The notes beneath the pieces are model-generated. The model ran no database searches, was not told where the DNA came from, and saw nothing but the letters and a program-made list of their open reading frames with translations. The translations under genes were made by a program, and so were the position numbers. A DNA stretch of 64,000 bases from positions 22,379-86,378 of the IMG/VR virus record IMGVR_UViG_3300044701_003572; one strand, written 5' to 3'. Source of the DNA: a virus. Positions 37,789 through 64,000 of the stretch are shown here, piece after piece; position 1 is the first letter of the stretch; every line of letters begins with the position of its first letter.

Positions 37789-37816
37789 TATATGATAGGT
37801 TAAATAATAGCAGTTT

Positions 37817-38800
37817 ATGACACACGACTTTCAAAAAATACCTTTTCAAAATATAATTAAATTTGGACAGAGAACTATGTTAGAAAGACCTTTGTTCTCT
37901 GTAAGTTGGATATTAGGACGATTTTGTAATTATAGTTGTTCATATTGCTGGCCGTATGCAAGATCGGATAGAATTGATCACCAATCACTAGACATCTATA
38001 AAAATACAGTAGACGAAATTAAAAGACAAGCAAGACAGAATGGATTTACAGAGTTTCATTGGAGCTTCAGTGGTGGCGAACCAACGGCCTATAAACAACT
38101 ATTAGATCTAGCAAGACATTTAGAAAATGATTTAGAAAGTCCGTATCAGAGCATACATATGACTACCAATTTAAGTCCGGGAAGCAAATGGTGGAAAAAT
38201 TGGTCGAATACTACTGCTAATTTGCAGAGAAGAAGTATTACAGCAAGCTATCATTCTGAGTTCGCTAAAGAACAGGAATTTGGTGATAAATGCCTTCAGC
38301 TTATGTACGACAACGTATATGTTACAATCAATCAAGTAATGGTGCCGGATCAATTTTTTCAATTATACGAACGCTGTGAAAGACTGCATAAAAGAGGAAT
38401 CAATGTAACTCTGAAGCCTCAGAGTGATCCTACGGCCAGCGGCGTTGTAGATGGATATACCAAGGAAATGATTAACCTGATGCAGACAGGTTTTCCTCAG
38501 CAGGCCAACGCCGAAGAATTATATCAAATTGTACTTTATGATACTAATGATAAAGAGTATTTGTTTGATCAGGCAGAAAGATTTAACGCTTATGATTTTA
38601 ATAAGTTTCAAGGATGGCATTGTAATTCTGGATACCAAAGTGTTATAATTCGCAGCGATGAAGTAAAAAGATCCTATAGTTGTCATGATCAACTGTTAGG
38701 AACTTTAACAGAAGGATTTAATTTGTTTAATAAACCTCGACGCTGCATTACACCTAGTTGTGTAAGTTCAGCTGATAGTAAAGTACCAAAATGCAAATAG
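37817..38800 (+). CDS. radical SAM protein (C-terminal twitch-like Cys)
   Basis: CNYSCSYC, SGGEP, GWHCNSG...C...C. Confidence 0.9.
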   Translation: MTHDFQKIPFQNIIKFGQRTMLERPLFSVSWILGRFCNYSCSYCWPYARSDRIDHQSLDIYKNTVDEIKRQARQNGFTEFHWSFSGGEPTAYKQLLDLARHLENDLESPYQSIHMTTNLSPGSKWWKNWSNTTANLQRRSITASYHSEFAKEQEFGDKCLQLMYDNVYVTINQVMVPDQFFQLYERCERLHKRGINVTLKPQSDPTASGVVDGYTKEMINLMQTGFPQQANAEELYQIVLYDTNDKEYLFDQAERFNAYDFNKFQGWHCNSGYQSVIIRSDEVKRSYSCHDQLLGTLTEGFNLFNKPRRCITPSCVSSADSKVPKCK

Positions 38801-39399
38801 ATACAGAACATTTACATTACTGGATGCAGGCTATCCGGCAAAGCCCGAATCCTATGCGAACCATGGATGCATTCTGGAGAGGACAACTTAAAAGCAAAGA
38901 ATGGTTAATCGAAAATTTACGTAAGCACGTAAACAAATTTGTAACAGTAGATATTCACGGAGGATGGGTTGGAGTATTAGCTAGTATGTTGTTCCAGAGC
39001 GAAATTCCTATCATTAATATTCGTAGTATTGATATTGATCCAACGTGCGAACCTATCGCTGTTAATATGAATAAGATTGAAGAAATGGTAGGGAAGTTTC
39101 GAGCAGTCACTGCCGATATGTGTGTTATTAGCAGTAATGCAGATGTTATCATTAATACCAGCTGTGAACATATTACACAGTACGATTATGATACGTGGCT
39201 AAATGGTATTCCATCTAGCTCATTGCTTGTTTTACAAAGTAATAATTATCAAATTCCGGAGCACGTTCGAACAGCAAAAACATTAGATGAATTTAAAGAA
39301 CAATCTAATATTAACATATTGTGGTCCGGAGAACTAGAATTGCCCTTATACAACCGATATATGATCATTGGAAGAAAGAATGTTACCTTATCCACATAA
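38791..39399 (+). CDS. class I SAM-dependent methyltransferase-like protein
   Basis: IHGGWVG, SIDID, TADM and INTSCEH motifs. Confidence 0.65.
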   Translation: MQIDTEHLHYWMQAIRQSPNPMRTMDAFWRGQLKSKEWLIENLRKHVNKFVTVDIHGGWVGVLASMLFQSEIPIINIRSIDIDPTCEPIAVNMNKIEEMVGKFRAVTADMCVISSNADVIINTSCEHITQYDYDTWLNGIPSSSLLVLQSNNYQIPEHVRTAKTLDEFKEQSNINILWSGELELPLYNRYMIIGRKNVTLST

Positions 39400-40480
39400 T
39401 ATAAAATCAGTTCATATCGAATTAACTGACAAATGTCAAGCAGCCTGTCCTATGTGTTCGAGAAACGAGTTCGGCGGCAAAGAACGCAGTCATATTAAAA
39501 ATACTGAAATTACTTTAGAACAGTTTGTTCAATGGTTCCCTAGAGAATTCTTAATGAAACTTGATAGTTTTTATGCTTGTGGAAATAACGGAGACCCTTT
39601 ACTGGCTAAAGATTGTTTAGAAATATTCGAATATCTGGCTAATAACACTACTGATGATTGTAGACTTGCCATTCACACTAACGGAAGTTTGAGAAATAAA
39701 GAGTGGTGGACGAATCTTGCTAGAGTTCTGGGTAATAAAGGTTTGGTAGTTTTTGCTATCGATGGATTTAAAGGTCAGCATGAAATGTATAGGCGAAACA
39801 CTAGTTGGGATAAAATTATTGAGAATGCTAAGACATTTATAGCTGCTGGCGGCAAAGCAAGATCAGATACTTTGTTATTCAAACACAACGAAGATGAGGC
39901 AGAAAATCTAAAAGAATATCTACTTAGCATCGGGTTTGAAGAAGTTATTCTAAAACCAACACAAAGGTTTCACGGATTACCTCAGTTCCCAGTAAAAGAT
40001 CAATATGGTAACGTGGAATACTATATCGAAGGACCTACGAAACCGCAGTATAAAGAATACATTATGCAACCAAACATGGTTAAGTTAGTAGAAAAAGAAA
40101 CTTATAATGCTCTAATTAAAAATTCTGAAATTGATCCGAAGTGTCAAACTGGTCGAGACTTATTTGTTAATACTTTTGGTAATGTGTGGCCCTGCTGTTT
40201 TGTACAGGCATTAAATGTCACTGACGGACTTGACTGGCAAGGTGCCGAATATGTTATTAGGGAAAGATTAAGACTATCCGCTGTAGATGTAGCAGATGAT
40301 ATTGGTATTCCAAATTTGCACGGAACTAATATCGTTGATATTTTGAATTCTTGCGGTTGGGGCGAAAGTCTTCCTAAACATTATACCACTGATAAAAAAT
40401 TAGTTTGTGTTAAAAGTTGTTCTACAAACTTACGAAAGTTGGTTGAAGATAATAACAAACCTCAAATACAATACTGGTAA
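39380..40480 (+). CDS. radical SAM/SPASM protein
   Basis: CQAACPMC, GDP, HTNGS, PCC, CVKSC. Confidence 0.9.
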   Translation: MLPYPHNIKSVHIELTDKCQAACPMCSRNEFGGKERSHIKNTEITLEQFVQWFPREFLMKLDSFYACGNNGDPLLAKDCLEIFEYLANNTTDDCRLAIHTNGSLRNKEWWTNLARVLGNKGLVVFAIDGFKGQHEMYRRNTSWDKIIENAKTFIAAGGKARSDTLLFKHNEDEAENLKEYLLSIGFEEVILKPTQRFHGLPQFPVKDQYGNVEYYIEGPTKPQYKEYIMQPNMVKLVEKETYNALIKNSEIDPKCQTGRDLFVNTFGNVWPCCFVQALNVTDGLDWQGAEYVIRERLRLSAVDVADDIGIPNLHGTNIVDILNSCGWGESLPKHYTTDKKLVCVKSCSTNLRKLVEDNNKPQIQYW

Positions 40481-41142
40481 TCTAAAATAACACCTGCTCG
40501 GGTAATTGATTCAAAAGCACCTGTAAATGTATCTGGAGTCAGCGTGTTTAAATAAACTTCCTTTTCGCTGATTGCTTTGAAACCTGTAATTGTATTATTT
40601 TTTACACCTGCATTGATCAATGTCATAATCGGTGTGTACGCCAATTGCTTCCAATCATAGTCGCCTTCGATAATTTTAATTTTAAGAAAAGGATCTTGTT
40701 CGTTGTATCTCGGTAAAAGAACACGCACATTAAGATGTATTCTAGTTCGAGGTCCCCAATTTGCCGCAACGTGTATTTTGCCTGTGTTCATATACCATAG
40801 TTGTCCGTCGGCAGGCAGATGGTATAATTTGTTGTCAGTTATATCAACTAAAAAACTGTAAGGATTGGTAATAATAGCAAGATGTATTCGATCATCTGGA
40901 TCAGCGTGTGCAGTATATGACTCCGCAGATTCTAGTTTAAGAAGTCTAGCCTGCCCAATATTTCCTAAAGACTTTAATACCTCACCTAACGGAGTTGATT
41001 CAAACTCCGGCAAAATTATCCAAGGATCATGAAAGAAAGATCCAGAAGGTTTATTCAAGTCTAGACGTTTTTCAAATACCAAATCATCAACTTGTTGTAT
41101 AATGGGTTCTATAGAAAATTTTTGGTCGAGTTTAGTAAGCAT
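40462..41142 (-). CDS. Fe(II)/2OG oxygenase-like protein (Asp/Asn beta-hydroxylase-like)
   Basis: HAD...IHL...IHVAANWG..TRIHL. Confidence 0.65.
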   Translation of the reverse strand: MLTKLDQKFSIEPIIQQVDDLVFEKRLDLNKPSGSFFHDPWIILPEFESTPLGEVLKSLGNIGQARLLKLESAESYTAHADPDDRIHLAIITNPYSFLVDITDNKLYHLPADGQLWYMNTGKIHVAANWGPRTRIHLNVRVLLPRYNEQDPFLKIKIIEGDYDWKQLAYTPIMTLINAGVKNNTITGFKAISEKEVYLNTLTPDTFTGAFESITRAGVILDYQYCI

Positions 41143-41152
41143 AATTATACTT

Positions 41153-41875
41153 ATGAAAGTAGATATACCGTTTGATAATAATTGGAAAAGTGTTGCTATT
41201 GCGGTAAGTGGCGGCGCTGATAGCGCATTACTGACATTTCTAGTTTGTCAAACAGTAACAGAAAGAAATATTAATCCTTTTACTGTACACGTTATTAATA
41301 ACATTAGATGCTGGAAGACTAAGCCCTGGCAACAAAGCGATTTTAAAAAAGTTTATAATTGGTTAGTTCAACGATTTCCAAAAATTAATTTTCAAATACA
41401 CACAAATTTCGTACCTCCTGAACTAGAATGGGCCAATAAAGGTCCTAGCATTATCGATGAATACGGTAAGTTAGTCAGTGGAGACACACTAGAATTAAGA
41501 TCCTTTGCAGAATTTGTATGCATCAATCAGGATGTTGATGCATATTTCAATGGCGTTACACGAAATCCAAAAGGCGTTGATTTTCAGGGAATGCATACTA
41601 GAGATATAGAACCTACCGAAGAAAATCGTCATCTTAAACTAATGATACATATGGGAAAACTGGTATCGCATCCTTTTAGATTTTTAGATAAAAGTTGGAT
41701 AATTAAAAAGTATTATGAATTAGAGCTAGAGGATCTACTTAATACCACTAGAAGCTGCGAAGGAACTGTTCCAGGTTTAGATTATACTAATTATAAACCT
41801 TATCAATATGTTCCGGTGTGTGGAGAATGTTTCTGGTGTAAGGAACGAGAGTGGGGAATTAAATGTCAAGATTAA
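41153..41875 (+). CDS. QueC-like PP-loop ATPase
   Basis: SGGADS PP-loop; TRSC...CGECFWCKER Zn site; start MKVDIP. Confidence 0.65.
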   Translation: MKVDIPFDNNWKSVAIAVSGGADSALLTFLVCQTVTERNINPFTVHVINNIRCWKTKPWQQSDFKKVYNWLVQRFPKINFQIHTNFVPPELEWANKGPSIIDEYGKLVSGDTLELRSFAEFVCINQDVDAYFNGVTRNPKGVDFQGMHTRDIEPTEENRHLKLMIHMGKLVSHPFRFLDKSWIIKKYYELELEDLLNTTRSCEGTVPGLDYTNYKPYQYVPVCGECFWCKEREWGIKCQD

Positions 41876-42495
41876 TTACATTTGGGTGTTCATATACATT
41901 TGGACATGGTTTACCCGACTGTCTAGATCAAGAAGTTGATGGTTGTAGAATACCTCCAGAAACTGCTAGTAATCTAGGTTGGCCAGTTATTCTAGCAAAC
42001 AAAATGAATAGAACACTGATAAACGTGTCTAGGCCAGGATCTAGTAATTTAGAAATACTATATTCTATATTAAGTTTTGATTTTCAATCAACCGATCAAA
42101 TTGTTGTTATGTGGTCACATAACATTCGAGATATTATCTTTACTGAGGATGATATGAACCCATTATTACGTTTACGACTAGGACCTTGGAGTAACGAACG
42201 ATATGCACAGCAATGGGTATTAAAGGTAACTGAAAGAGATTATTGTTTAAAGACCTGGATATATATTCAACATTCTGATTTATTTTTTGAAAAGAAAAAT
42301 ATTAAATGGCTTCATTATCCGGCAGCGCCTCACGAATTATTAGAATTTAAATTTAATTTTATCAATTCTGATCATATTTGTTTCGACGGATTTAAAATAG
42401 TCGATGATGCTGAAGATAATAAACATCCAGGTTTGAAAACCCAACAATTAATAGCCGACAAGATTTACAACCAATTGTATGAACAATCAAAGTAA
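41863..42495 (+). CDS. SGNH/GDSL-like hydrolase or acyltransferase
   Basis: FGCSYT, GSSN and DNKHPG motifs. Confidence 0.6.
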   Translation: MSRLITFGCSYTFGHGLPDCLDQEVDGCRIPPETASNLGWPVILANKMNRTLINVSRPGSSNLEILYSILSFDFQSTDQIVVMWSHNIRDIIFTEDDMNPLLRLRLGPWSNERYAQQWVLKVTERDYCLKTWIYIQHSDLFFEKKNIKWLHYPAAPHELLEFKFNFINSDHICFDGFKIVDDAEDNKHPGLKTQQLIADKIYNQLYEQSK

Positions 42496-43744
42496 AACAT
42501 TTTGTATACATCCTTTCACAGGATTGGCAACACGAGAAGACGGTGCAGTCAAGGTCTGCTGCCGTAGTCAGCCTGTGGGTTGGATACAAGAACAGAGCAT
42601 AGAAGATATTTGGAACAGCGAAACTATATGTGAAGTTCGCAGGCAAGTGCTCTGCGGTGAGCGTCCTGAAGTCTGCAAACCCTGTTTTGATCTAGAAGAT
42701 CAAGGTGTAGAAAGTCTGCGCCAACGACACATCAATGGCGTCATACCTGAATCAAGAATTAATTTATATCCCAACGCACTAGATAGCCTACGTGAAGATT
42801 ACACAATGCCGTTTGAATTTCCTACAATGGAAATTAAACTTAATAATCTCTGTAATTTAAAATGCAGAATGTGCAATCCGTTAGATAGTACTAGCTGGAA
42901 AGACTGGGATTATGTCAAACCTTTTTATGAAAAAGAAAATAACTACCTTGTTCCCACAGTGGCCAAGTTGGTGCGTACTCCCGGACAGTACATTGGTCCT
43001 TTTGATGACACTGAAAACTGGTGGGTTAGTTTCGAAAAACTTTTGCCATATTTTCGTAGAGTAGAGTTTGCGGGAGGAGAACCTTTGATGGATCCGCAGC
43101 ACTATAAGATCTTAGATATGTTAAAGCCTTACGCTAAAAACATAGAAATCAAGTATGCTACTAACGGCACTACGTTAGGTATAAGTCGAGATAGAACTAT
43201 TCACGACTACTGGCCATATTTTAAATCTGTAGCAGTGAATGTTAGTCTTGATGGTATACATAGTGTATATGATTATATTCGTACCAATAGCAACTTTGCA
43301 GAAGTCGAAAAGAACATCAAAGAAATACAGACAATACCAAATGTCAGTAGAGTAGTAGGGGCATTTACTGCACAGGCTGGAAATATTTTACAGGCAGCAG
43401 AGTGTATCGATTATTTTATCAATGAAATGAACATAGTATTCTACAGCCATCGTGTAAGTTATCCTAATGTACTATCGGCCCAAGTACTACCGCAGGAATT
43501 AAAAGACTTAGCCATCAGCAGATTGCAGACAGTATCTAACAGAATTTGTACATTCCCTAACATAGAAAAATATCCTATTCTAGAAAAAATTACCCAACAA
43601 CAAATTAAAGATAATATCAACTATCTGCGAGCCAGGGATCAAAGTCATTTATGGCAAGATTTTTTAGAATTTAATCGTAAATTAGATACTACAAGAAATC
43701 AAAATTTATTAGAGGCTGTACCGGAGTTTACTGCATATGTATAA
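42479..43744 (+). CDS. radical SAM protein with N-terminal twitch/SPASM-like domain
   Basis: FCIHPF..CC..CKPC, then CNLKCRMC and AGGEP. Confidence 0.9.
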   Translation: MNNQSKTFCIHPFTGLATREDGAVKVCCRSQPVGWIQEQSIEDIWNSETICEVRRQVLCGERPEVCKPCFDLEDQGVESLRQRHINGVIPESRINLYPNALDSLREDYTMPFEFPTMEIKLNNLCNLKCRMCNPLDSTSWKDWDYVKPFYEKENNYLVPTVAKLVRTPGQYIGPFDDTENWWVSFEKLLPYFRRVEFAGGEPLMDPQHYKILDMLKPYAKNIEIKYATNGTTLGISRDRTIHDYWPYFKSVAVNVSLDGIHSVYDYIRTNSNFAEVEKNIKEIQTIPNVSRVVGAFTAQAGNILQAAECIDYFINEMNIVFYSHRVSYPNVLSAQVLPQELKDLAISRLQTVSNRICTFPNIEKYPILEKITQQQIKDNINYLRARDQSHLWQDFLEFNRKLDTTRNQNLLEAVPEFTAYV

Positions 43745-44636
43745 GGTTACTTCAGCTTGGCCTCACCAAGATCAGCTTAAAGTAGAATGGAATCTAGGTA
43801 AACGCTGTAACTACGATTGCAGTTATTGTCCTTCTGAGATACACGATAATGTTAGTCCCCATACAGATATCAATCTTTTAGAGAGAGCAGTGGATAGACT
43901 CTGCGAAATAGGCAAGCCTTTACGCATCAGTTTAACGGGTGGCGAACCTTGCGTTCACCCCGACATAGAAGATCTTTTAGATTATTTTAAGAGAAAAGAC
44001 ATATTTTGGGTCAACTTAACTACTAATGGAACTAGGGGTTATCGTTGGTATTTAGATCATGAAATGTTTTACAATCACATAGTATTCAGTCTGCATTTTG
44101 AACAAGACTGGCATAGAATTTTTGATACAATATTAAAATATTATGATACTACCGAGAGAGATTTTTTTGTGAATGTAATGGCACATCACAAGTATATGCA
44201 TAATGTCAAGACTGTAGTCAAGAAGTTTGACGAATTAGGAATTAAATATGCCGTTCGTAGAATACGATGGACCGAAGGCGATCATAATGTATTCGATGAT
44301 CTTAAATACGACGGACAAGACCTACAGTGGATATTGAATAAAGACGCTACAGCTAAACCTAATTGCCGTATAGACGATGAAAAAATCATTCATTCTAACG
44401 ATGTAATCAAACAACATTTAAATCAATTTAAAGGGTGGCGGTGCAATGCTGGACTTGAAAGCCTAATGATTAATTGGGACGGTGATGTACATCGTGCAAC
44501 CTGTCGAGTTGGCGGAAGTTTGGGCAACATCTACCAAGGTACTTTTGCAGTCCCGCAACAGCCCATCGAGTGTACTAGAGATTGGTGTACCTGTGCAGCA
44601 GATATACCTCTGACGAAGGTGAAGACGATTGAATAA
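43737..44636 (+). CDS. radical SAM protein
   Basis: CNYDCSYC, TGGEP, GWRCNAG...C..C.C. Confidence 0.9.
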   Translation: MYKVTSAWPHQDQLKVEWNLGKRCNYDCSYCPSEIHDNVSPHTDINLLERAVDRLCEIGKPLRISLTGGEPCVHPDIEDLLDYFKRKDIFWVNLTTNGTRGYRWYLDHEMFYNHIVFSLHFEQDWHRIFDTILKYYDTTERDFFVNVMAHHKYMHNVKTVVKKFDELGIKYAVRRIRWTEGDHNVFDDLKYDGQDLQWILNKDATAKPNCRIDDEKIIHSNDVIKQHLNQFKGWRCNAGLESLMINWDGDVHRATCRVGGSLGNIYQGTFAVPQQPIECTRDWCTCAADIPLTKVKTIE

Positions 44637-45597
44637 TTTTCTTAGTGAGATTACTTTCTGGTTGACACCAACAACTTAATTTAGAGCAAGTAGTTGACCT
44701 AAGAGCTGGTTTGAAATTTTCTATAAAATCTTTATCTCTAATATTATATTGAAAATCTAAATTATAAAGATTGTTTCCGCAAGCGCCTGTTAAATTTCCA
44801 TTTTTGTCTATGAACAGACTATCAATGCCTAGGTTACAGTCCCAACCATAGAAATTATTGATCTTCTTCAGTATGATTTCGTTGTTTTTAACATTAATCT
44901 TACTGCCGTCTTCGGTAACTACACTAGTTTTTAACAAAGTATGTTTGTTATTGATTAGGAACCAAAAAGGATTAGCCTGACGCAGTCTATGTTTCTTTAG
45001 TATTTCTTTTTGTTCTTCGTTGTAATTTATAGTACTATGATAGATCTCTTGTATATCTATACCCCATCTACGTTGGCTTTTCTTAAGGCGTTTTACTAAA
45101 TCCATGCATTTGTCCCAATGATTAGGATCCATTAATACCAGACCTGTGATAATTACCCGTTGGTCATATAGACAATCGGCAACTTTGATAAAGTGATCTA
45201 CATCCACACTCTCATGATGACAACTAAGTATAACCTTATCCATATACTTGCCATATTGTTCCCACCAGCGTAGTGTTCTAGATCCGTTAGAACTCATACT
45301 GAATATACAATCAAAGTTATCTTTAAAATGTTGTATGAAGCGTCCGAACTCTGGCCACATAGTGGGTTCGCCGCCTATGATGTGTAATTCAAAAGTTTTT
45401 TTATCTAGATTTTTAATGTAGTAATTTAATAAGTGTTCTAAATTTTTAACAAACAAATCATATTCGGGCCACCGATGTGTGCCTTCATTGCTACCTGGAA
45501 AACAATACCAACATTTGTAATTACAGGTATTGCCTAGCATGATTTCAATCCGTAATTTATTTTCAGGCCAACGGTGTTTAACTTCTACAATTTTCAT
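44575..45597 (-). CDS. radical SAM protein
   Basis: CNYKCWYC, GGEP, GWDCNLG...C...CWC. Confidence 0.9.
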   Translation of the reverse strand: MKIVEVKHRWPENKLRIEIMLGNTCNYKCWYCFPGSNEGTHRWPEYDLFVKNLEHLLNYYIKNLDKKTFELHIIGGEPTMWPEFGRFIQHFKDNFDCIFSMSSNGSRTLRWWEQYGKYMDKVILSCHHESVDVDHFIKVADCLYDQRVIITGLVLMDPNHWDKCMDLVKRLKKSQRRWGIDIQEIYHSTINYNEEQKEILKKHRLRQANPFWFLINNKHTLLKTSVVTEDGSKINVKNNEIILKKINNFYGWDCNLGIDSLFIDKNGNLTGACGNNLYNLDFQYNIRDKDFIENFKPALRSTTCSKLSCWCQPESNLTKKIIQSSSPSSEVYLLHRYTNL

Positions 45598-49004: not shown

Positions 49005-49017
49005 CTTGTACTTATTG

Positions 49018-49644: not shown

Positions 49645-49684
49645 AGTCACATATTTATTGCCCAAAAAAACTAACAGTAAATAT

Positions 49685-53035: not shown

Positions 53036-53077
53036 TTTATTACCAAATAAATAGTGTTATATTTAATATACAATAAA

Positions 53078-55974: not shown

Positions 55975-57132
55975 TACTGAAACGAGTTTATTTTTTAAAG
56001 AATCAAAATAGTCAAATTCGGCGGTGATAGGAATCATCACTAAAACTCCATCTCGACTGCTATTCCAAATCCCCATATGCATTCCATGTTTGTAAAAAAT
56101 AGATTCTTTTTCTAAATAGTTTGATATTTCTGTTTTTAAGATTAGATTAAAACATACTCCGAAGTTTCTATAGTCTTTGATTAATTTTTGATTTTTTAAA
56201 TCATCAAATAATGATCTTGCAGTTGAAATAATTGTATCGTGCATCGATAAAATATTTTCTTTTTCGATTATGTCTAGATATTTTAAAACACTAATGATCC
56301 CGGCCATAGGAAAACTATAACTGAATCCGTGCATCAACATTTGTGGTTTAACGACATCTGCAACACGCTGGTTACAAAGAGTTGCACTTAAGGGAAAATA
56401 ACCTCCTGTTATTCCTTTTCCTATACAAAATATATCCGGTTGAACACCGTACATTTCGAACCCGAATAAGGTCCCTGTTTTTCCTCCGCAAAATGCTATG
56501 TCATCGATGACTAATAATACGTTATTTTTATTGCAAATATCTCTCAGATTTTGAAAATATTCTTGACCTAAATCAATTAGGCCGCCTTGCCAGGAACAAG
56601 TTTCTATTATTACTGCTGCGGTATCGGAATCGATTTGATCTAGTTGATCATATGAAATAATTTGACAATCATTATGACGCCCAAAAATATTTGTAATATA
56701 TTCACTTCCGCTCACACTAGAACTCATATATGTCGAACCGTGATAAGAGTGTTGAAAACCTATAATTTTTTTCTTTTTTCCTTGATGAAACATATGAACT
56801 AGTTTAATTGCACCCTCTATAGCATCACTGCCTGATAAAGAATACATTGGATAATAACCGTTAGATAAATTATAAAGTTTTTGAGAAAGCAAAGTAGTCA
56901 AATAATTAGCTGTAACGAAGTCTCCTTGACAGAAAGGGTATTTCTTTAATTCGTCTGTAACCGAGTCAATTAAGTCTGTTCTTTTAAATCCGAGTAAGAA
57001 ACAACCACTACTACCTAATCCAAGATCTAAAATATCTCTCTCGTCGTCTTTAAAACCGTATTTGGTTATTTCTGTTGATTTTTTAACAGTCGGCAACGGA
57101 TCGTTTATGCTAAATGGAAATAATTGTTTCAT
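55948..57132 (-). CDS. class III PLP-dependent aminotransferase
   Basis: SGSDAIEGAIK, SYHGST, DDI...GKTG and PDIFCIGKGITGG motifs. Confidence 0.88.
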   Translation of the reverse strand: MKQLFPFSINDPLPTVKKSTEITKYGFKDDERDILDLGLGSSGCFLLGFKRTDLIDSVTDELKKYPFCQGDFVTANYLTTLLSQKLYNLSNGYYPMYSLSGSDAIEGAIKLVHMFHQGKKKKIIGFQHSYHGSTYMSSSVSGSEYITNIFGRHNDCQIISYDQLDQIDSDTAAVIIETCSWQGGLIDLGQEYFQNLRDICNKNNVLLVIDDIAFCGGKTGTLFGFEMYGVQPDIFCIGKGITGGYFPLSATLCNQRVADVVKPQMLMHGFSYSFPMAGIISVLKYLDIIEKENILSMHDTIISTARSLFDDLKNQKLIKDYRNFGVCFNLILKTEISNYLEKESIFYKHGMHMGIWNSSRDGVLVMIPITAEFDYFDSLKNKLVSVLSETNSDC

Positions 57133-58346
57133 TCGTACCTCTTAATAAAAGGATATAGTTTTTGGTAGTTAGTTTTTCTAGTGATATCGTATAGATCCAG
57201 AACTCTGGTTCTTTCTGTCACTACTTCGTTAAAATCATTTATTTGACTTTGTAAAATTTCGATAGAATCTAGGATACCTTTCTTAAATCCTTTGCTATCA
57301 CTTAATATTTTTAAATCTTTATTTGAACATTTTTTGAGAAGACATATAGCTTTTTCTTTTTGTTCGGGTTCTAGATATTCAAAAGAAAAATAGTCTGGTT
57401 GAAATACGATTCTAAGTACAACATCTAACCATTCTATATTATATTTTTCTGCTGTCTTTTCGAAAGTGTCTAGAATTTCTTCTATATCAAATATATTGAA
57501 TATACTTATGGTAAAAGATATTCCAAGATTTCGATTGCCTGCTGAAATTAGTTTGTCTAAATTTTTTAAGAAATTGGAATAAGTAGCAGGATATCTTATG
57601 AGCCTAAATTTTTCATCCTCTATATGATCCCAACTAATCCATAGTTCTTTTTTTGGAAATTGAGTTAGCTTAGATAACATATCGTCAGTTAAACTAGTGA
57701 GATTTACTGTAGTTGATAAGTGTATATCTGTATATTTGTGTCTAATACAATAATCCAAGAGATTGTGTGTTACGGGACTAATTAATGGTTCACCACCCTG
57801 TAGTTCTAGTTTAATCTTATTCTTTAATAAACTTTCGATATTTTCTAAGATATAATCGCCTGCATAGAAATTACCTTGATTAATTTCTTCAATGACTTCG
57901 AGCCATTTAGGCATTTTTATATTTTCAGTTCTAAACAATTTTACTTCTTTCTCATGCTGAGAACTCTGATAATGATTACAAGTAATACATTTTAAATTAC
58001 AAGTATTATCTGATTTTAATCCTAACATCGAAGGTAAAGACTTTGTTTTTATGTTAATGTCTGTGTTTAGATTCTTAAACACTTTATTGAACTCTTGACG
58101 TTGACTGGTTGTTCCTCGAAGCTCTCTATTCCAACATACTTGACAATTTTTGTTTCTAACACCATTGAGTAAATCTTGTCTTAAGTTAACAAAATAATCA
58201 TCGTTCCACGCTTGTTCTATAGTGTGAGTATTAATGTTACTATTTTTTGTATCGCCGGTCTGACTGTGACCGCAGGCTACATAATCTCCGTTACGCTCTA
58301 AATAGACATTAATAAAAGGCATAATACAAAATGTTTCTTTATTCAT
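57129..58346 (-). CDS. radical SAM protein with N-terminal twitch/SPASM-like domain
   Basis: FCIMPF..C..CQVC; CNLKCITC; GGEP. Confidence 0.88.
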   Translation of the reverse strand: MNKETFCIMPFINVYLERNGDYVACGHSQTGDTKNSNINTHTIEQAWNDDYFVNLRQDLLNGVRNKNCQVCWNRELRGTTSQRQEFNKVFKNLNTDINIKTKSLPSMLGLKSDNTCNLKCITCNHYQSSQHEKEVKLFRTENIKMPKWLEVIEEINQGNFYAGDYILENIESLLKNKIKLELQGGEPLISPVTHNLLDYCIRHKYTDIHLSTTVNLTSLTDDMLSKLTQFPKKELWISWDHIEDEKFRLIRYPATYSNFLKNLDKLISAGNRNLGISFTISIFNIFDIEEILDTFEKTAEKYNIEWLDVVLRIVFQPDYFSFEYLEPEQKEKAICLLKKCSNKDLKILSDSKGFKKGILDSIEILQSQINDFNEVVTERTRVLDLYDITRKTNYQKLYPFIKRYE

Positions 58347-59646
58347 AATCTTTTAAGTAAGGAAACATTGTTCTGTAATCTGTATTTCGAATTTGATCGT
58401 AAATTCTCAAAACTCGAGTTCTTTCTCTGCACACATCAGTGTGGTCAAGATTTTCATCTCCCATATAACCCGGCACGCTAATCACACTTTCTACAAATTC
58501 TGGATTATCACGGAATATTTTATAATCATAATTGCGTGTCATAAAGTTGTTGATTCGGTCAGTTATTTCTTGTTTTTGATCTAATTCTAGGTAGCGTAGA
58601 CTAAAATAATTTGGATAATAAATTAATCCAAAGTTTATAACAAAACGATTAGTAGTTCTATGTGCAATAGTTTCCCATTCGGTAAAGATATCTTCGAAAT
58701 CGAAGATATTAAAAATACCCCAGGTAGTACTAAGTTTTTTCTCTATATGTTCATATTCCCAAAGTTTTTCAAAATTTCTTTTAAACACCGAATAGTCTGC
58801 GGGATATCTTATAAAATTAAATTTTGCAGGATCAATATGGTCGTAGCTAATACATAGCATCGGATATTTGAATTGATTTAGCAATCCTATGGTTTTAGGA
58901 TTGATCACAGATAGGTTTGTGATGATCTGTAACATCATATTTTTTGCATAACCTTTTTCCACACATTGCTCTAATAATCTTTGTGTGGTTTTGTTGACCA
59001 ACGGCTCCCCGCCTACTAGACTCATGTGTATGGCCTGTTGCAAACTAGGGTCTAAATTTTCTACTATTGGTTCGATATCTAAATCTCTAGGATTAAAATC
59101 TTCAACCTTAAAATTAAATTCTTTTACTCTATTGTCGAACATCTTTAGAAGGCCAGGAAGCTCTATACCTTTAGATGTCATTTCTTCTTGTTCGTCTTGA
59201 TGTAGACTACTACTGCCCGGATAGCACATAATACACTTTAAGTTGCACTGTGTTCCTACTTTCACATCAAGGTCAGTTGGCGGTGTTGATAATGCACCTC
59301 CATTGGCCAGAGCATCGTTAACAAATTTATCATAATCTGGATACATAAAGTGTTTCTCGTCATTGGTCTTTTGACGCTTACTATATGCACCCCCTGCTTC
59401 ATAATTCCAGCAGTATTCGCAGGTGGGATTTTTAATTCCATTTAATAGATCTAATCTAAGCTTTTTATACTGATCGCTGTTCCATACCTCTATTACATTA
59501 TCCTTTCTCATATTATAAGGAGTACCGTCGGGTTTGGCCACAACTATTTCTTCGCTGCAACAACAAGCTCGATAATTGCCGTCATTAGTAGAGCTTATGT
59601 GCGTAAACGGCAAAAGACAAAATGTAGGATGATTCTTATAATCCAT
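58339..59646 (-). CDS. radical SAM protein with N-terminal twitch/SPASM-like domain
   Basis: FCLLPF..CCC..CEYC; CNLKCIMC; GGEP. Confidence 0.88.
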   Translation of the reverse strand: MDYKNHPTFCLLPFTHISSTNDGNYRACCCSEEIVVAKPDGTPYNMRKDNVIEVWNSDQYKKLRLDLLNGIKNPTCEYCWNYEAGGAYSKRQKTNDEKHFMYPDYDKFVNDALANGGALSTPPTDLDVKVGTQCNLKCIMCYPGSSSLHQDEQEEMTSKGIELPGLLKMFDNRVKEFNFKVEDFNPRDLDIEPIVENLDPSLQQAIHMSLVGGEPLVNKTTQRLLEQCVEKGYAKNMMLQIITNLSVINPKTIGLLNQFKYPMLCISYDHIDPAKFNFIRYPADYSVFKRNFEKLWEYEHIEKKLSTTWGIFNIFDFEDIFTEWETIAHRTTNRFVINFGLIYYPNYFSLRYLELDQKQEITDRINNFMTRNYDYKIFRDNPEFVESVISVPGYMGDENLDHTDVCRERTRVLRIYDQIRNTDYRTMFPYLKDYE

Positions 59647-60226
59647 AAACTTTCTCGTAGATTTTAGGCAAAATGTTTCCAGGCCATTTTATATAATCAT
59701 TGAACGCATACTTCATTAGAATTCTCATGTCTAATTTTCCGTCTGTACTGATCTTTTCAATAAGATCTAATCGATCGCTATTTAAGATGGGTTTGTAAAA
59801 ATCTATACTTATAGGTTGCTCAGAATAATCACTGGCAGAATAAAAGTTAAATGCGTGAATTTTATTTCTCGAGTCTACATAAAAATATTTCGGATAGAAA
59901 CTAGGCTTGTAAATTCCTTCTCGATCAAGATCAATAACAATAGATTCTAATTGACTAACATAATCGTCGGGAATAATATCTTCGCAGGTATTTCCGTACC
60001 AACGAAAAACAATGCGCCTAGTAATTTTATCCATAGTAACAATTTCGGGAGACCAGCTATACTTCTGTAATCGTTCCAAGTATCTCACTTCTCGAGAAAA
60101 ACTGCTGTTAATTAAGTCTTCGGGATACCAGTTACCTTCGGGGTTAAAGTCCATGCAGAAAAGTCTACCGTCGTTGGTGATTAGGCTTCTATAGATTCCA
60201 CGATTTGAATTATATAATTTGAACAT
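59636..60226 (-). CDS. atypical protein-kinase-like fold protein (paralog of 63187)
   Basis: REVRYL alphaC-like segment; GIYKPSFYP; AFNFY. Confidence 0.45.
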   Translation of the reverse strand: MFKLYNSNRGIYRSLITNDGRLFCMDFNPEGNWYPEDLINSSFSREVRYLERLQKYSWSPEIVTMDKITRRIVFRWYGNTCEDIIPDDYVSQLESIVIDLDREGIYKPSFYPKYFYVDSRNKIHAFNFYSASDYSEQPISIDFYKPILNSDRLDLIEKISTDGKLDMRILMKYAFNDYIKWPGNILPKIYEKVYGL

Positions 60227-60249
60227 TTTTTCTCTAGTATTTACGCATC

Positions 60250-60257
60250 TATAAATA
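60250..60257 (+). promoter_or_regulatory. T4-type late promoter TATAAATA
   Basis: Exact T4 late consensus 4 nt before ATG 60262; a divergent TAAATA lies at 60238-60243. Confidence 0.7.
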
Positions 60258-60261
60258 CTCG

Positions 60262-60804
60262 ATGAAACTTATTGGGAATACTCTACATCTCATAGATTGG
60301 GATACTGTTATTAACACAATTAAAGATCGATCTGGAAACACACTAAAGTATAATGATAGTTGTTTTCCAAAAACTGACGACTTTGATCGGTTAGATAAAA
60401 TTTGGACAAAGGCAGGATATCTAAGAAACTCTGAAGTAGTTGAGTGGACTAACTACTTTCCAGGAGATGATTTTGATAAAACAGTTGTTGATCAATTTCG
60501 CAATATAGTTAGAGCAGAACCTTGGATGGTTTGGATTAGTAGAATACGCCCAGGAAAAATGGCTCCTTGGCATTTTGATGCACACAGCAAAATTAAAGAT
60601 TTAGACAAATTAGGAACGCCGGTTAGATTTACTTGTTATATTCAATCACCGCAACCAGGACACGTTAGCATTGTAGAAAACAGTTCAGTCTATATGCCGG
60701 ATAAGGGAAGCATATACCAGTGGCCTAGTCATGATGCTTGGCATTGCGGTATGAATGGAGGATTAGAGGATAAGTTTATGTTTAATTATTGGGGTTATAA
60801 ATGA
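60262..60804 (+). CDS. Fe(II)/2OG oxygenase-like protein
   Basis: PGKMAPWHFD...WHCGMNGG. Confidence 0.65.
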   Translation: MKLIGNTLHLIDWDTVINTIKDRSGNTLKYNDSCFPKTDDFDRLDKIWTKAGYLRNSEVVEWTNYFPGDDFDKTVVDQFRNIVRAEPWMVWISRIRPGKMAPWHFDAHSKIKDLDKLGTPVRFTCYIQSPQPGHVSIVENSSVYMPDKGSIYQWPSHDAWHCGMNGGLEDKFMFNYWGYK

Positions 60805-62375
60805 ACGTAATAATTGTAGGAGGCGGAACAGCCGGATGGATGACCGCCGGATGGCTAGTTAAAAAGAATAAGAATGTGTCAATAACAGTAATTGAAAGCC
60901 CTGACATTCCAAAAATCGGAGTAGGTGAAAGTGTAACACCACACGTAGCTAATTTCTTTATAGAATTAGGAGTTCCCGAAGAACACTGGATGTATCATAC
61001 TGGAGCAATCTATAAATTGGCTAATAAATTTGTTAATTGGAAAACAAATACAGGCGAAGCTGAATATTTTAGTTTTAATTACACAGGGGACTCCCGATTA
61101 TTCTATAAAGAAAATAGTGTGCCGTTGTCGAAGGACGACTGGCAAATTAAAAATCTACGATCATCAGATATATTATTAGATTTATGTAATCAAGGTAAAA
61201 TCGATAAATTTGGTAGTTATTTTCATACTCAGCATCATTACATGGAACAAAATCGAGCACCGTTTATTGATAACGAATATTTGCTTAATCCGTTGTTTAG
61301 TTGGAGTCATCATATCAATGCTGAACTAACTGCTGAATACATACGAGATCACATTGCTATTCCAGCAGGGGTTGTTCATATACAAGCCAAGGTAGTAGAT
61401 GCTAGTATGCAGGGCGAAAATATCACTTCAGTTATTCTAGAAAATGGCGAAGTGATTACCGGCGATGTCTTTGTGGACTGTACAGGATTTAGACGATTAC
61501 TAACAAATAAGTTAGGATGGAAAGTTAAAGAATATTCTGATGCCGCAGTTGACCGTGCATGGGTTTGTCAAATTGATTATACTAATCGTGAGAAAGAAAT
61601 GGTCAATTATAGTCAGACTATTGCACACCCGCACGGTTGGATGTTCAGGATTAGTCTATATCATCGAATGGGGACCGGATACATCTTTAGCTCTAATCAT
61701 ACTACCGAAGAAAAAGCTAGAGAATATTTTCTTAATCAAATAGGTGATATGGATCGTAGATTTGATCCTAAATTAATAAAATGGAATCCTAGTAGATTAG
61801 AGCATGCCGCTAATGGAAATACAGTAGCAGTGGGGTTAAGTTTTGGGTTTGTTGAACCTATGGAGGCTAATGCACTCTACACTATTATTACTACTATTGG
61901 TAAGTTGAGCGAGGCTATAGATAATAATTTAGACTTTGAGTTATTAAACAAAAATGTGTGTTATAGTATGGATGACATTGCTGACTTTGCAATGTTACAT
62001 TACAGCCTAAGTCAGCGCACCGATACTAACTTTTGGAGTGACATGAGAAGTCGTAATGTTAATAATGGTCATATCGATCTGCTATACAGTAAGTATACTA
62101 ATCCAATGCATTCGATGTCTAGTTGCATCGATGGAACTACATTATTTCCTGACTACATGTGGGCACACTTAGCACAGGCATGGGGAGTTGATACTAGCTC
62201 CTGGAATATTAAAGTTGATACGGCAACTCAAGAACTTGCCAAACTTTATTATGAATATCAATACAATAAACATAAGATAGCCAGCAGCAAATGTAACAAT
62301 AATTATTTATGGCTAAAAAAGAATCGATTCAACAATTTAAATTCCCAAGAATGGGAACGTTTAATACGAGGTTAA
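60801..62375 (+). CDS. tryptophan halogenase-family flavoprotein
   Basis: GGGTAGW, IGVGES, YKLANKF (catalytic Lys), DCTGF, WMFRIS and FVEPME motifs. Confidence 0.88.
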   Translation: MNVIIVGGGTAGWMTAGWLVKKNKNVSITVIESPDIPKIGVGESVTPHVANFFIELGVPEEHWMYHTGAIYKLANKFVNWKTNTGEAEYFSFNYTGDSRLFYKENSVPLSKDDWQIKNLRSSDILLDLCNQGKIDKFGSYFHTQHHYMEQNRAPFIDNEYLLNPLFSWSHHINAELTAEYIRDHIAIPAGVVHIQAKVVDASMQGENITSVILENGEVITGDVFVDCTGFRRLLTNKLGWKVKEYSDAAVDRAWVCQIDYTNREKEMVNYSQTIAHPHGWMFRISLYHRMGTGYIFSSNHTTEEKAREYFLNQIGDMDRRFDPKLIKWNPSRLEHAANGNTVAVGLSFGFVEPMEANALYTIITTIGKLSEAIDNNLDFELLNKNVCYSMDDIADFAMLHYSLSQRTDTNFWSDMRSRNVNNGHIDLLYSKYTNPMHSMSSCIDGTTLFPDYMWAHLAQAWGVDTSSWNIKVDTATQELAKLYYEYQYNKHKIASSKCNNNYLWLKKNRFNNLNSQEWERLIRG

Positions 62376-63164
62376 GTGATCAATACCTAACTTTTTTCGA
62401 AAAGCTTCTGTAAATTTTCCGTCAATGCGTAAGCTGTAACTTTGTTCGATGATCTTTTCGCCGCCGTGCCAGTCTTGATCGTTCCACCAAGCAGCACGAG
62501 TGTTTAGATAAACTTTATTTTTTGTATCCGGATCCCAAATATAAAAGGCTTTTTTAGTATTGGGTCTAATATGTATGAATTCATTACGATGTGGAAATGT
62601 AATGTTCATACCGTTCTTAGCATCTAGATCCCTGTGTTCAAATGGTATACCATCATGATCACAGTGAAAGAAAATAACACGACCGATGTGTTCAAATATA
62701 CCTCGATCGATGGTAGATTCCACCCACTTGACTACATTGGGAAAATACGCAGCTTCTTCTGTAAGTTTGCGAGGAGCCGTGCGATCGTCCCAAGAACCTT
62801 CTTCCCATAAGAAATAGTAAATGTAGGGATCGTACGCACCTAGAGCCATTTTTAGATAACGAGTAAATTTGTTTCTAGTTTGATGGTCTTTGATATTTGT
62901 ATAAAGATCCCATCCCCCTCGTTTGATAGGGTCATTATCCGGTAAGGATAGATATTCTTCTAGTGCTTGGTAGATAGGTTTCCAATGGGGAGTGTAGCTC
63001 ATTTCTTCAAAGGTAAATCCCGGTGCCATCCAAGTACCTTCTTTGGCATAGGGGCGTGCCTCGGCGAACCCACGGATGATTTCTGGTTGCAGTTTATCAA
63101 AAGTCTGCATATCCAAAAATTTTTCCATATCGAAATAGGTTTGGCCGTTTATTCCTCTGATCAT
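62361..63164 (-). CDS. Fe(II) oxygenase-like protein
   Basis: EHRD...DWHGG...SLRIDG. Confidence 0.55.
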   Translation of the reverse strand: MIRGINGQTYFDMEKFLDMQTFDKLQPEIIRGFAEARPYAKEGTWMAPGFTFEEMSYTPHWKPIYQALEEYLSLPDNDPIKRGGWDLYTNIKDHQTRNKFTRYLKMALGAYDPYIYYFLWEEGSWDDRTAPRKLTEEAAYFPNVVKWVESTIDRGIFEHIGRVIFFHCDHDGIPFEHRDLDAKNGMNITFPHRNEFIHIRPNTKKAFYIWDPDTKNKVYLNTRAAWWNDQDWHGGEKIIEQSYSLRIDGKFTEAFRKKLGIDHLTSY

Positions 63165-63186
63165 ATTTTTCCTAGATAATTACTGT

Positions 63187-63873
63187 ATGAAGTACGAATA
63201 CTACTATAATAATGTTCCCGGCATTGGTTTAACAAGGAACAACCTTATTTACACCAGTCTTATCAGTGACGATAAAAAAACTTTTGTCATGTGGTTTCAC
63301 AATGACAGCGAATATCATCGAGGTCAAAATGAAGTAATTGATTCAGAGTTAATGAAATCTAAATGGAACCGTGAAGTAAAATACCTTATAGAAATGTCTT
63401 GGAAGTATGAGGATAAAGTCCCAAAAATACTAGAGATAGATCATCAAAATCAAAAAATATATTTGGCTATCGATGGTTTAGATTTTTGGAATCGCGCAGG
63501 CTGTTTGACAGAAAACTATAACAGCGTATTACCCGATTGGCAAGATCAAATGTTAAGAATATTAACTGCTCATAGATCTTTGGGATTGTACAAGTATTCA
63601 ATGCACCCGAGCAGTTATTTTATTGTTGATGGTCAATTAAAAAGTATAAATTATTTCTTTTGCTATCACAAAAATGAAGGACCAATCTCTATCAAAGACC
63701 ATTCAAGTCATATACATTCTAATAGACAAGTAGAAATGCGTAAACATATAGATAGGCTAGGAATTAGTTGGACAGAACCTCAACCTTTGGCACTCCTGCA
63801 AGACCTCTGCTGGGAAAGTTTTAGAACAAATTATCCTAGCGATTTTATTGAGAAGGCAAAATGTATAAAGTAA
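63187..63873 (+). CDS. atypical protein-kinase-like fold protein (paralog of 59636)
   Basis: REVKYL; GLYKYSMHP; SINYF. Confidence 0.45.
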   Translation: MKYEYYYNNVPGIGLTRNNLIYTSLISDDKKTFVMWFHNDSEYHRGQNEVIDSELMKSKWNREVKYLIEMSWKYEDKVPKILEIDHQNQKIYLAIDGLDFWNRAGCLTENYNSVLPDWQDQMLRILTAHRSLGLYKYSMHPSSYFIVDGQLKSINYFFCYHKNEGPISIKDHSSHIHSNRQVEMRKHIDRLGISWTEPQPLALLQDLCWESFRTNYPSDFIEKAKCIK

Positions 63874-64000
63874 TTCCTTGGTCAGAAGATTTAGATCTCG
63901 ATCAATTTTATATTACAGCAAGGGCTAAAGGTTTTGAAAATAATTCTAGTCAACAGATGTTAGTCGATTGTTTTCGTAAAGAAAAAGAATGGCAGGTATG
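63861..64000 (+). CDS. hypothetical protein (partial)
   Basis: ATG at 63861; MYKVIPWSEDLDLDQFY...GFENNSSQQML, open to the window end. Confidence 0.6.
   Translation, partial: MYKVIPWSEDLDLDQFYITARAKGFENNSSQQMLVDCFRKEKEWQV

Follow-up and report, generated by a model that had tools for sequence, protein, structure and literature searches.

A radical SAM enzyme island, poor in glycosyltransferases, in a freshwater T4-like jumbo phage

The window analysed here comprises the final 64,000 bases of an 86,378-base virus record, IMGVR_UViG_3300044701_003572 of the IMG/VR collection, and it ends in an island of 28 tightly packed genes that includes twelve encoding radical S-adenosylmethionine (SAM) enzymes. 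The source contig, to which CheckV assigns a completeness of 24%, derives from a T4-like jumbo phage, uncultured and of freshwater origin, and represents a fragment of its genome; the island exemplifies a feature that is conserved and widespread among aquatic jumbo phages. More precisely, it is a glycosyltransferase-poor variant of a recurrent radical SAM island of aquatic giant phages. To our knowledge, phages usually carry at most one or two radical SAM genes (QueE, NrdG or viperin-like), whereas this virus carries 12 and its close relatives 9-15. A sugar-type substrate is favoured for these enzymes, mainly because their bacterial homologues sit among glycosyltransferases, and we give a probability of roughly 0.4 to the reading that the island enzymes edit such a substrate stepwise.

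An initial annotation, made by inspection of the DNA, had described a tailoring-enzyme island running from position 37817 to the end of the window, with 12 radical SAM enzymes in five paralog groups, and this description was borne out. The island consists of 28 open reading frames (ORFs) between 37817 and 63873, arranged in divergent blocks with overlaps of a few bases between most neighbours; its full length is open-ended, because it reaches the end of the contig. All twelve of the predicted radical SAM proteins score above the gathering cut-off of PF04055 (29.5 bits), each with a single CxxxCxxC motif. A six-frame search of the entire record placed its 12 PF04055 matches within the island and none in the remaining ~60 kb. 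Throughout the text, genes are named by their first position in the window (Table 1).

Radical SAM enzymes and their conservation in phages

Comparison by blastp resolved the radical SAM proteins into groups A (37817, 43737 and 44575), B (39368 and 49658, 32% identical), C (42479, 45594, 57129 and 58339), D (46976 and 50748, 27% identical) and E (53054). Group C belongs to the family NF033640 (N_Twi_rSAM), to which 42479 and 45594 are assigned by scores above the cut-off of 170 bits, and 57129 and 58339 by blastp and alignment. In all four paralogs a SPASM/twitch domain (PF13186, within residues 7-100; residues 9-69 in 42479) lies N-terminal to the PF04055 core, and the four Cys residues that precede the core motif CNLKCxxC (C22, C40, C97 and C100) do not vary. 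In the group-C profile, the N-terminal domain can be aligned to the twitch domain of BtrN, which holds its auxiliary cluster (1.4e-6), and the best PDB match of the profile is the tetraether lipid synthase GDGT-MAS. Metagenomic homologues of 45594 number 3874 at E <= 1e-10. A midpoint-rooted FastTree phylogeny was built from 256 representatives, near-identical sequences and ORFs outside 380-560 residues having been dropped beforehand; in this tree 42479 falls in a clade of 24 viral representatives with support 1.0, and 57129 and 58339 form a pair whose sister is a Bdellovibrionia sequence. The phage group-C paralogs occupy at least three separate places, each beside bacterial sequences, and because of this scatter they are old subfamilies rather than recent phage duplications. 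Four longer relatives of 813-1425 residues consist of radical SAM and SPASM domains alone, in tandem units; no fusion of a radical SAM enzyme to a family 2 glycosyltransferase (GT2) was found in the viral and bacterial loci examined.

The remaining groups are less closely tied to named families. In group D, of the B12-binding type, 46976 reaches 25.7 bits against PF02310 (cut-off 32.1) and 50748 does not match this model, and the NCBIfam models for B12 radical SAM enzymes, including PhpK and lipid families, all match far below their cut-offs. The group-E protein carries the Zn_ribbon_HMPTM domain (PF23545), the zinc ribbon of a pterin-methylating radical SAM family, and its top PDB match is GDGT-MAS (7tol, 3e-16). 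A QueE role for the group-A protein 43737 is not supported: it scores 37 bits against a cut-off of 260, and in a PDB profile search viperin-like enzymes and GDGT-MAS rank ahead of QueE, which appears at rank 15 (E 6e-4).

The island is an intact, constrained and genuine phage gene block that encodes soluble enzymes. When viral contigs were searched with 45594 as the query protein, 50 loci at 43-83% identity were recovered, and a tblastn matrix defined a conserved core of 37817, 38791, 39368, 40462, 41102, 42479, 43737, 44575 and 45594, which 62361, 63187, 60262 and 48447 often adjoin in other phages. By enzyme type, the conserved set counts three small radical SAM proteins, one or two of group B, two of the N-terminal-twitch kind, and one each of the Rossmann-like, AspH-like cupin, QueC-like ATPase, 2-oxoglutarate (2OG)-oxygenase-fold and kinase-fold proteins. 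The stretch from 46976 to 62375 is mainly an accessory insert of ~15 kb between core genes, holding the B12-type radical SAM enzymes, 53054, the aminotransferase, 57129, 58339 and the halogenase together with copies of 48447 and 60262. Two near-complete viral relatives, G001 (331,570 bases, 93% complete) and G002 (363,943 bases, 100% complete), carry the same kind of block. The former has 15 PF04055 matches, 14 of them above cut-off, at 240-271 kb, and the latter nine above cut-off at 240-264 kb; in neither genome does a radical SAM protein above cut-off lie outside the island block. Of the 28 island genes, 25 have homologues in G001, all within a single 32-kb block; 41863, 44575 and the halogenase are missing there. 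The island of G002 follows the same backbone genes as in the window, from the tail fibre up to the homologue of 35849, and the extra island genes of G002 are additional AspH-like cupins, not glycosyltransferases.

Two outcomes that would have undone the proposal, a chimeric assembly and a decaying gene set, were also considered, and we regard either form of artefact, a false join of bacterial DNA and phage contig or a dying remnant, as highly improbable. The core families do have bacterial relatives. The backbone-island junction rests on the synteny of G002, because the independent contigs, none of which bridges 37439-37737, leave ~300 bases uncovered. These contigs, of 6.3, 6.1 and 9.0 kb, come from an independent 2021 freshwater study; they lie over 37737-50089 with at most 31 differences each and so repeat 12 kb of the island at >99.5% identity. 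In thirteen public sequencing runs, half or more of the words sampled from 41102-50755 are present. Against a chimera stand these contigs and runs, the occurrence of the core on 50 viral contigs, the same backbone genes preceding the island in the complete G002, and the bacterial loci described below, in which no T4-like backbone gene was found. Decay is not seen either, since the genes retain open frames as well as their cluster motifs: in four core radical SAM enzymes the motif persists in 50/50, 31/31, 35/36 and 27/28 homologues (the first, third and fourth values being those of 45594, 43737 and, among viral homologues, 37817), and likewise in 17/17 for 39368, 6/6 for 49658 and 10/10 for 44575. 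A stop codon lies within three of the ten homologue matches of 44575.

Close homologues are missing from the phage collection. Neither the island nor the tail region gave a megablast match among its 50,697 phage records, no close homologue was found among its isolates, and tblastn with 45594 detected distant relatives only, in Ralstonia phage RsoM2USA (25% identity) and in Vibrio phages K566 and K567. In RsoM2USA, a cultured phage of 344 kb, the twitch radical SAM match lies among runs of genes of ~190-220 residues that are all annotated as hypothetical (L137, 202-234 kb). This region of RsoM2USA may represent a remote form of the island in a phage that can be cultured.

The initial annotation had further placed late-type promoters at several block starts. 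This holds in part: suitable motifs are present at several unit starts, and the late timing is read from promoter-like motifs alone. Within the 64 kb the T4 late-promoter octamer TATAAATA is strongly depleted, with a single occurrence against 9.8 expected and at least one in each of 100 shuffles, and this sole site lies 5 nt upstream of the ATG of 60262, which suggests that TATAAATA is a functional signal avoided elsewhere in the window. The hexamer TAAATA lies within 35 nt upstream of five of the 11 transcription-unit starts (37817, 53054, 60262, 53035 and 60226), where ~0.16 unit starts would be expected from its 53 sites on 128,000 strand positions; the sites concerned are at 37801, 53048, 53065, 60243 and 60252. 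The placement of TAAATA and TATAAATA perhaps fits phage-driven transcription late in infection. Among the 20 runs listed as holding island sequence, none is an RNA run.

Bacterial relatives and the candidate substrate

A scan of species-representative genomes with the group-C alignment returned 167 relatives, from which 78 loci were kept (L059-L136). Nearly all belong to Bdellovibrionales or Oligoflexia, and they include long chromosomes as well as Bdellovibrio sp. HCB2-146 (L060), which is listed as an isolate and whose homologues of 45594 and 37817 are 47-49% identical to the phage proteins. In the bacterial loci, twitch radical SAM genes stand in tandem, with six or seven copies at most; five of the bacterial genomes (G005-G009) contain 9-17 NF033640 matches each, and none of 14 control genomes has one above cut-off. 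The arrays also hold homologues of 37817 (49-52% identity), 39368/49658, 38791 (30-40% identity) and 40462. Five core families, the twitch family included, are found in these bacteria.

Glycosyltransferases adjoin the cluster in all three of the bacterial loci that were annotated with Pfam. In HCB2-146, five GT2 genes and a gene with a Glyco_transf_7C match only are interleaved with, or partly overlap, the radical SAM homologues. In L071, genes for AsnB, a GT2, a UDP-glucose dehydrogenase and a PMT_2 protein follow seven or eight radical SAM genes. The third locus, L067, holds a 575-residue protein, two GT2, two twitch radical SAM enzymes, a small radical SAM enzyme and a transporter of the major facilitator superfamily, flanked by housekeeping genes; a tRNA-synt_2 gene of 432 residues just upstream of this cassette (L067:4238-5536, in a metagenome-assembled genome of the Pseudobdellovibrionaceae) may be one of the latter. 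Among the bacterial loci, 45 are 15 kb or longer, and 17 of these are matched by a home-made GT2 hidden Markov model built from six of the sequences, frequently directly beside radical SAM genes. The link to glycosyltransferases is therefore strong in the bacteria, and it is nearly absent in the present phage subclade.

The initial annotation had listed a virion glycan or protein, DNA bases and the host envelope as possible targets. From this list the bacterial context favours sugar, and the near-absence of glycosyltransferases from the phages speaks against it. On a sugar reading, the island enzymes would act sequentially on a single sugar-type substrate, for which a glycan unit, a nucleotide-sugar and a small molecule derived from a sugar are all candidates. 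Hydrogen would be abstracted from C-H or C-OH by the twitch radical SAM enzymes in a step like BtrN-type oxidation, and this oxidation could in turn feed the co-transcribed aminotransferase. The B12-type enzymes would add C-methyl groups, the cupins would hydroxylate the substrate, the QueC-like ATPase would activate a carboxylate for amidation, and the kinase-fold, SGNH-like, SDR-like and halogenase proteins would complete the decoration (SDR, short-chain dehydrogenase/reductase). Candidate carriers of the product include the host envelope and a virion fibre, among others. BtrN is a carbohydrate radical SAM enzyme, and the likeness of the island twitch domain to that of BtrN supports the sugar reading. 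Further points in its favour are the two twitch radical SAM genes beside an aminotransferase and the position of the island downstream of the tail-fibre genes.

Several observations weigh against a sugar substrate. Pfam scans of the 26-kb island revealed neither a glycosyltransferase nor a nucleotide-sugar enzyme, the home-made GT2 model matched none of the 50 viral loci, and of 25 related viral records, three have a GT2 above cut-off (one of them far from the island), none a GT1 and two a GT8. The families of 41102, 62361 and 63187 are absent from the 78 bacterial loci; because of this, guilt by association with the bacteria covers part of the core only. No island enzyme scores above the cut-off of an NCBIfam equivalog model of known chemistry. 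Finally, the best-known enzymes of PF05118 hydroxylate proteins or lipids, and the combination of SPASM/twitch and B12 radical SAM enzymes with a halogenase is also typical of peptide tailoring.

The strongest alternative, itself unlikely, is that the radical SAM enzymes, AspH-like hydroxylases, B12 methylases and halogenase modify protein or peptide, either a peptide like the RiPPs (peptides made on ribosomes and then modified post-translationally) whose gene lies elsewhere or a protein of the virion, for instance the adjoining tail fibres. The secondary NCBIfam matches of the radical SAM enzymes include PapB, YhhB, SkfB-type, ScmE/F and CefB maturases, but all of these RiPP-maturase matches are far below cut-off. 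PF05118 is the Asp/Asn beta-hydroxylase family; an EGF-like hydroxylation motif is nonetheless found in none of the six large structural proteins checked. The island lies downstream of the tail-fibre module, with late-type motifs at several of its unit starts, and a fibre-like protein of 1355 residues with a Peptidase_S74 end adjoins the cluster of HCB2-146; between the phage fibre and this protein, however, no homology was detected. Furthermore, no precursor gene fits within the island, because the only non-coding gap of more than 40 bases is at 37396-37816, which agrees with the initial annotation in having seen none. Pfam scans of the island gave no match to a RiPP recognition element (RRE)/PqqD-type domain, a leader peptidase or an exporter, and the bacterial arrays accompany glycosyltransferases, not peptide genes.

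Less probable again is a GTP-derived 7-deazapurine or pterin, destined for DNA, RNA or a free metabolite, that would be made by FolE, QueD, the QueC-like ATPase and an island radical SAM enzyme as QueE analogue and then decorated by the other enzymes. FolE (PF01227, 2e-40) and QueD/PTPS (PF01242, above cut-off) are encoded in the source record (G000), G001 and G002, but they are scattered tens of kilobases from the island. No canonical QueC is present in G001 and G002, which have sub-threshold PF06508 matches only, one of them the 41102 homologue (16.2 bits in G001, cut-off 22), and these genomes lack, as described above, radical SAM proteins above cut-off outside the island. If the phages make a deazapurine, the QueE and QueC steps must therefore lie within the island, because neither was found outside it. 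The label of 41102 as a QueC-like ATPase, proposed in the initial annotation, holds for motifs and fold and fails at the family model, which gives no match at E <= 0.01 (PF06508). Its SGGADS motif and C219, C240, C243 and C246 are invariant in 15 sequences, so that it shares SGGxDS and a C-terminal Cys4 set with QueC and Cap9. Its structure model (predicted local distance difference test, pLDDT, 80.6) has QueC (3bl5 and 2pg3, E 5e-7) as top Foldseek matches, with TM-scores of 0.48-0.61, and Cap9 at rank 7. It also matches phrog_1550, 'QueC-like', over its C-terminal part (2e-5), and yields marginal PP-loop matches in a PDB profile search (E 0.12-0.22). It has 3922 metagenomic homologues; among the 120 listed, 11 are named 7-cyano-7-deazaguanine synthase by JGI and seven carry PF06508.

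As for the remaining steps of such a pathway, 43737 points in the same direction as 41102 and can be aligned with QueE models across ~140 residues, and the zinc ribbon of 53054 recalls pterin-methylating enzymes. The QueE match of 43737 is weak, however, as given above, and its sequence is without the QGEG-type motif that we take to mark QueE. Of the phage 7-deazaguanine DNA-modification set, FolE and QueD were found, and a QueE equivalog and PF01702 (TGT/DpdA; no match in five records) were not. The bacterial homologues of the radical SAM core, moreover, operate without a QueC-like gene. A related and more speculative idea, to which we give still less credence, is that giant phages and Bdellovibrio-type bacteria share a radical SAM chemistry in which twitch arrays edit one scaffold at many positions; in the phage version, FolE, QueD and the QueC-like protein may supply that scaffold, which would give a new hypermodification of deazapurine or pterin type rather than a glycan. 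If this were true, the shared chemistry would give a heavily C-H-functionalised product used in the encounter with prey or host.

Tailoring of lipids, either a host membrane lipid or lipid A, is very unlikely. GDGT-MAS is the best PDB match of both 53054 and the twitch profile, the top NCBIfam matches of group D include a lipid-biosynthesis B12 radical SAM family and the hopanoid enzymes HpnJ and HpnR, and the AspH-like cupins have faint matches to LpxO and OlsC. All of these are far below cut-off, though, and reflect mainly the generic radical SAM core, and Pfam scans found no acyl-carrier protein, acyltransferase or membrane protein in the island. We retain stepwise editing of a sugar-type substrate as the preferred reading, with the bacterial gene neighbourhood as its main reason.

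Other island enzymes and the phage surroundings

Beyond the radical SAM enzymes, the labels given in the initial annotation fared unevenly. The aminotransferase is a clear Pfam assignment, as is the halogenase by its family score, and the two kinase-like proteins, 59636 and 63187, proved to be one family (hhalign probability 100) whose profile, A3, matches the kinase TTK at 4.3e-6. The absence of a scaffold synthase was confirmed, in that Pfam scans of the 28 genes found no domains of nonribosomal peptide synthetases or polyketide synthases. Within the aminotransferase 55948, all NCBIfam matches are below cut-off; this gene is the last of a minus-strand run 59636-58339-57129-55948. The putative halogenase 60801 contains GGGTAG and FVEPME at two of the motifs that mark flavin halogenases, GxGxxG and FxEPxE, but reads WMFRIS in place of the third, WxWxIP.

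Seven HxD...H oxygenase-like proteins had been proposed, of which five have family, hhalign or fold support, while 54247 and 55390 are left with the motif alone and match no family at all. Two, 49018 and 54819, pass the PF05118 cut-off of 22.6 bits and 40462 falls short of it; 40462 nevertheless has the HxD and a distal His and aligns to 49018 with an hhalign probability of 96.8. Neither 54247, 55390 nor 60262 has a Pfam match, and 60262 aligns to 40462 and 49018 with probabilities of 86.5 and 80. The model of 62361 (pLDDT 88.7) retrieves T7H, proline hydroxylase, ALKBH5, PHD2 and AspH with Foldseek at ~1e-4, with low TM-scores of 0.3-0.38; its H177, D179, H233 and R246 are invariant, and a PDB profile search returned nothing significant.

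The SGNH label stands for 41863 and 52307 as paralogs (hhalign probability 99.3) with GCS and DxxH motifs, but at the level of Pfam it amounts to a sub-threshold DUF6473 match, 41863 having no match. Similarly, 48447 has the TGxxxGxG and YxxxK motifs of an SDR and weak Epimerase/SDR family matches. The methyltransferase label of 38791 is the weakest of all: its sole support is a lead from a protein atlas, in which the nearest named cluster (score 0.96) has Methyltransf_31 in 21% of its members, and no Pfam, PHROG or PDB match was found, PDB profile searches being empty. Among PHROGs, six core proteins match generic 'radical SAM domain' families, and 38791, 40462, 62361 and 63187 (four of ten core proteins) have no match.

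The left part of the window is T4-like, with a clamp loader, baseplate wedge, tail fibres, an endonuclease and a thymidylate-synthase-like gene, and the tail-fibre genes are upstream of the island. By eye, the C-terminus of the translated 2527-residue tail-fibre-like protein resembles an endosialidase-chaperone (Peptidase_S74) domain. The called ORFs of 40462 and 41102, which diverge, share 41 bases at their 5' ends, and their true start codons may lie farther inside. A-type Fe-S carriers (PF01521) are encoded twice in each of the source record, G001 and G002, and once in G004; they fit the high Fe-S demand of a dozen radical SAM enzymes and may be the phage's own aid to these enzymes. None of five records contained a flavodoxin (PF00258) or a SAM synthetase (PF02773), and the GC content of the loci gives no pointer to the host.

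Table 1. Genes of the island and other features of the source record. Positions are those of the window unless G000, the 86,378-base source record, is named; lengths are in amino acids (aa). PLP, pyridoxal phosphate; 2OG, 2-oxoglutarate.
Feature	Position	Strand	Evidence or remark
Radical SAM, group A, 327 aa, core	37817..38800	+	PF04055 45.4 bits; CNYSCSYC
Rossmann-like, possibly methyltransferase, 202 aa, core	38791..39399	+	atlas lead
Radical SAM, group B, 370 aa, core	39368..40480	+	PF04055
AspH-like cupin, 226 aa, core	40462..41142	-	PF05118 E 0.0026, 18.1 bits, below cut-off
QueC-like PP-loop ATPase, 257 aa, core	41102..41875	+	SGGADS, Cys4, fold match
SGNH-like protein, 210 aa	41863..42495	+	GCS and DNKH motifs; paralog of 52307
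N-terminal-twitch radical SAM, group C, 421 aa, core	42479..43744	+	NF033640 320.8 bits
Radical SAM, group A, 299 aa, core	43737..44636	+	PF04055 52.1 bits
Radical SAM, group A, 340 aa	44575..45597	-	PF04055
N-terminal-twitch radical SAM, group C, 461 aa, core	45594..46979	-	NF033640 396.2 bits
B12-binding-type radical SAM, group D, 492 aa, accessory	46976..48454	-	PF04055; PF02310 below cut-off
Short SDR-like protein, 185 aa	48447..49004	-	TGHTFGIG and YGEIK motifs
AspH-family cupin, 215 aa	49018..49665	-	PF05118 36.3 bits, above cut-off
Radical SAM, group B, 365 aa	49658..50755	+	PF04055
B12-type radical SAM, group D, 534 aa, accessory	50748..52352	+	PF04055 71.3 bits
SGNH-like protein, 242 aa	52307..53035	-	GCS and DLKH motifs; DUF6473 below cut-off
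Radical SAM, group E, N-terminal zinc ribbon, 398 aa	53054..54250	+	PF04055 64.1 bits, PF23545 33.5 bits
HxD...H protein, 191 aa	54247..54822	+	motif alone
AspH-family cupin, 192 aa	54819..55397	+	PF05118 37.9 bits, above cut-off
HxD...H protein, 194 aa	55390..55974	+	motif alone
Class-III PLP aminotransferase, 394 aa	55948..57132	-	PF00202 167.4 bits, 5.5e-49
N-terminal-twitch radical SAM, group C, 405 aa, accessory	57129..58346	-	PF13186 at residues 7-72, PF04055
N-terminal-twitch radical SAM, group C, 435 aa, accessory	58339..59646	-	PF13186, PF04055
Protein-kinase-fold protein, 196 aa	59636..60226	-	hhalign to 63187; family profile
Cupin-like HxD...H protein, 180 aa	60262..60804	+	hhalign to 40462, 49018
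Flavin-dependent halogenase homologue, 524 aa, accessory	60801..62375	+	PF04820 297 bits, 3.2e-88
2OG-oxygenase-fold protein, 267 aa, conserved	62361..63164	-	structure model and Foldseek
Protein-kinase-fold protein, 228 aa, conserved	63187..63873	+	family profile against kinases
Clamp loader	4766-5719		T4-like left part of window
Tail-fibre-like protein	9146-11908		T4-like left part of window
Baseplate-wedge connector	13643-14779		T4-like left part of window
Tail-fibre-like protein, 2527 aa	16905-24488	-	
A-type Fe-S carrier	24835-25155	-	PF01521 59 bits
Thymidylate-synthase-like gene	36222-36995		T4-like left part of window
A-type Fe-S carrier	G000:C1:13070-13375		PF01521 59 bits; upstream of window
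FolE and QueD/PTPS	G000:C1:366-899 and window 29704-30042		

Relation to known systems

As the initial annotation had supposed, no characterised pathway of this composition was found in the databases and literature searched, and the literature on radical SAM enzymes, jumbo or huge phages, the twitch domain and Bdellovibrio, searched outside supplementary files, yielded no description of such an island. The nearest named thing is NF033640, an NCBIfam family without a characterised member. This family has no assigned reaction, and its members in the island, two by score and all four by the invariant Cys residues that they share, stand in a phage setting beside eight other radical SAM enzymes of four further types.

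Two characterised kinds of chemistry offer partial likenesses. Butirosin biosynthesis proceeds through oxidise-then-transaminate steps, and a run of twitch radical SAM genes with an aminotransferase resembles it: two group-C genes are co-oriented with the island aminotransferase, in addition to the alignment of their twitch domain with that of BtrN. The island twitch domain is N-terminal, however, whereas that of BtrN is C-terminal; similarity in the core is marginal, and the island aminotransferase is of class III, not of the DegT type. Proteusin-type RiPP sets, with radical SAM epimerases, B12 C-methyltransferases and an Fe/2OG hydroxylase, show a similar mix of enzyme classes; in contrast to these, the island has no precursor gene, leader-binding domain or protease, and no model matches above cut-off.

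The nearest described setting, as far as the accessible parts of the published account go, is the host-recognition cluster (HRC) of pelagimyophages and cyanomyophages (PMC7029224). These are likewise T4-like aquatic myophages with a hypervariable region beside the tail fibres, and radical SAM cassettes are described in the HRC of pelagimyophages. In the portion of that account consulted, glycosyltransferase and lipopolysaccharide genes are stressed and the freshwater genomes are without radical SAM proteins (PMC7029224), whereas the phage described here is a freshwater jumbo phage (relatives of 332-364 kb) with 12 radical SAM enzymes in an island free of glycosyltransferases. A single radical SAM maturase has been described in a cyanophage, again from the part of the source available (PMC12801897).

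Knowing the island product would show what chemistry is carried out by a large branch of radical SAM enzymes that is so far an orphan. It would also explain why phages of aerobic waters spend ~8% of a 330-360 kb genome on oxygen-sensitive enzymes and carry their own Fe-S carriers, and it could reveal a tool common to phages and predatory bacteria. Since the isolate Bdellovibrio sp. HCB2-146 carries a homologous core, the question is testable in culture.

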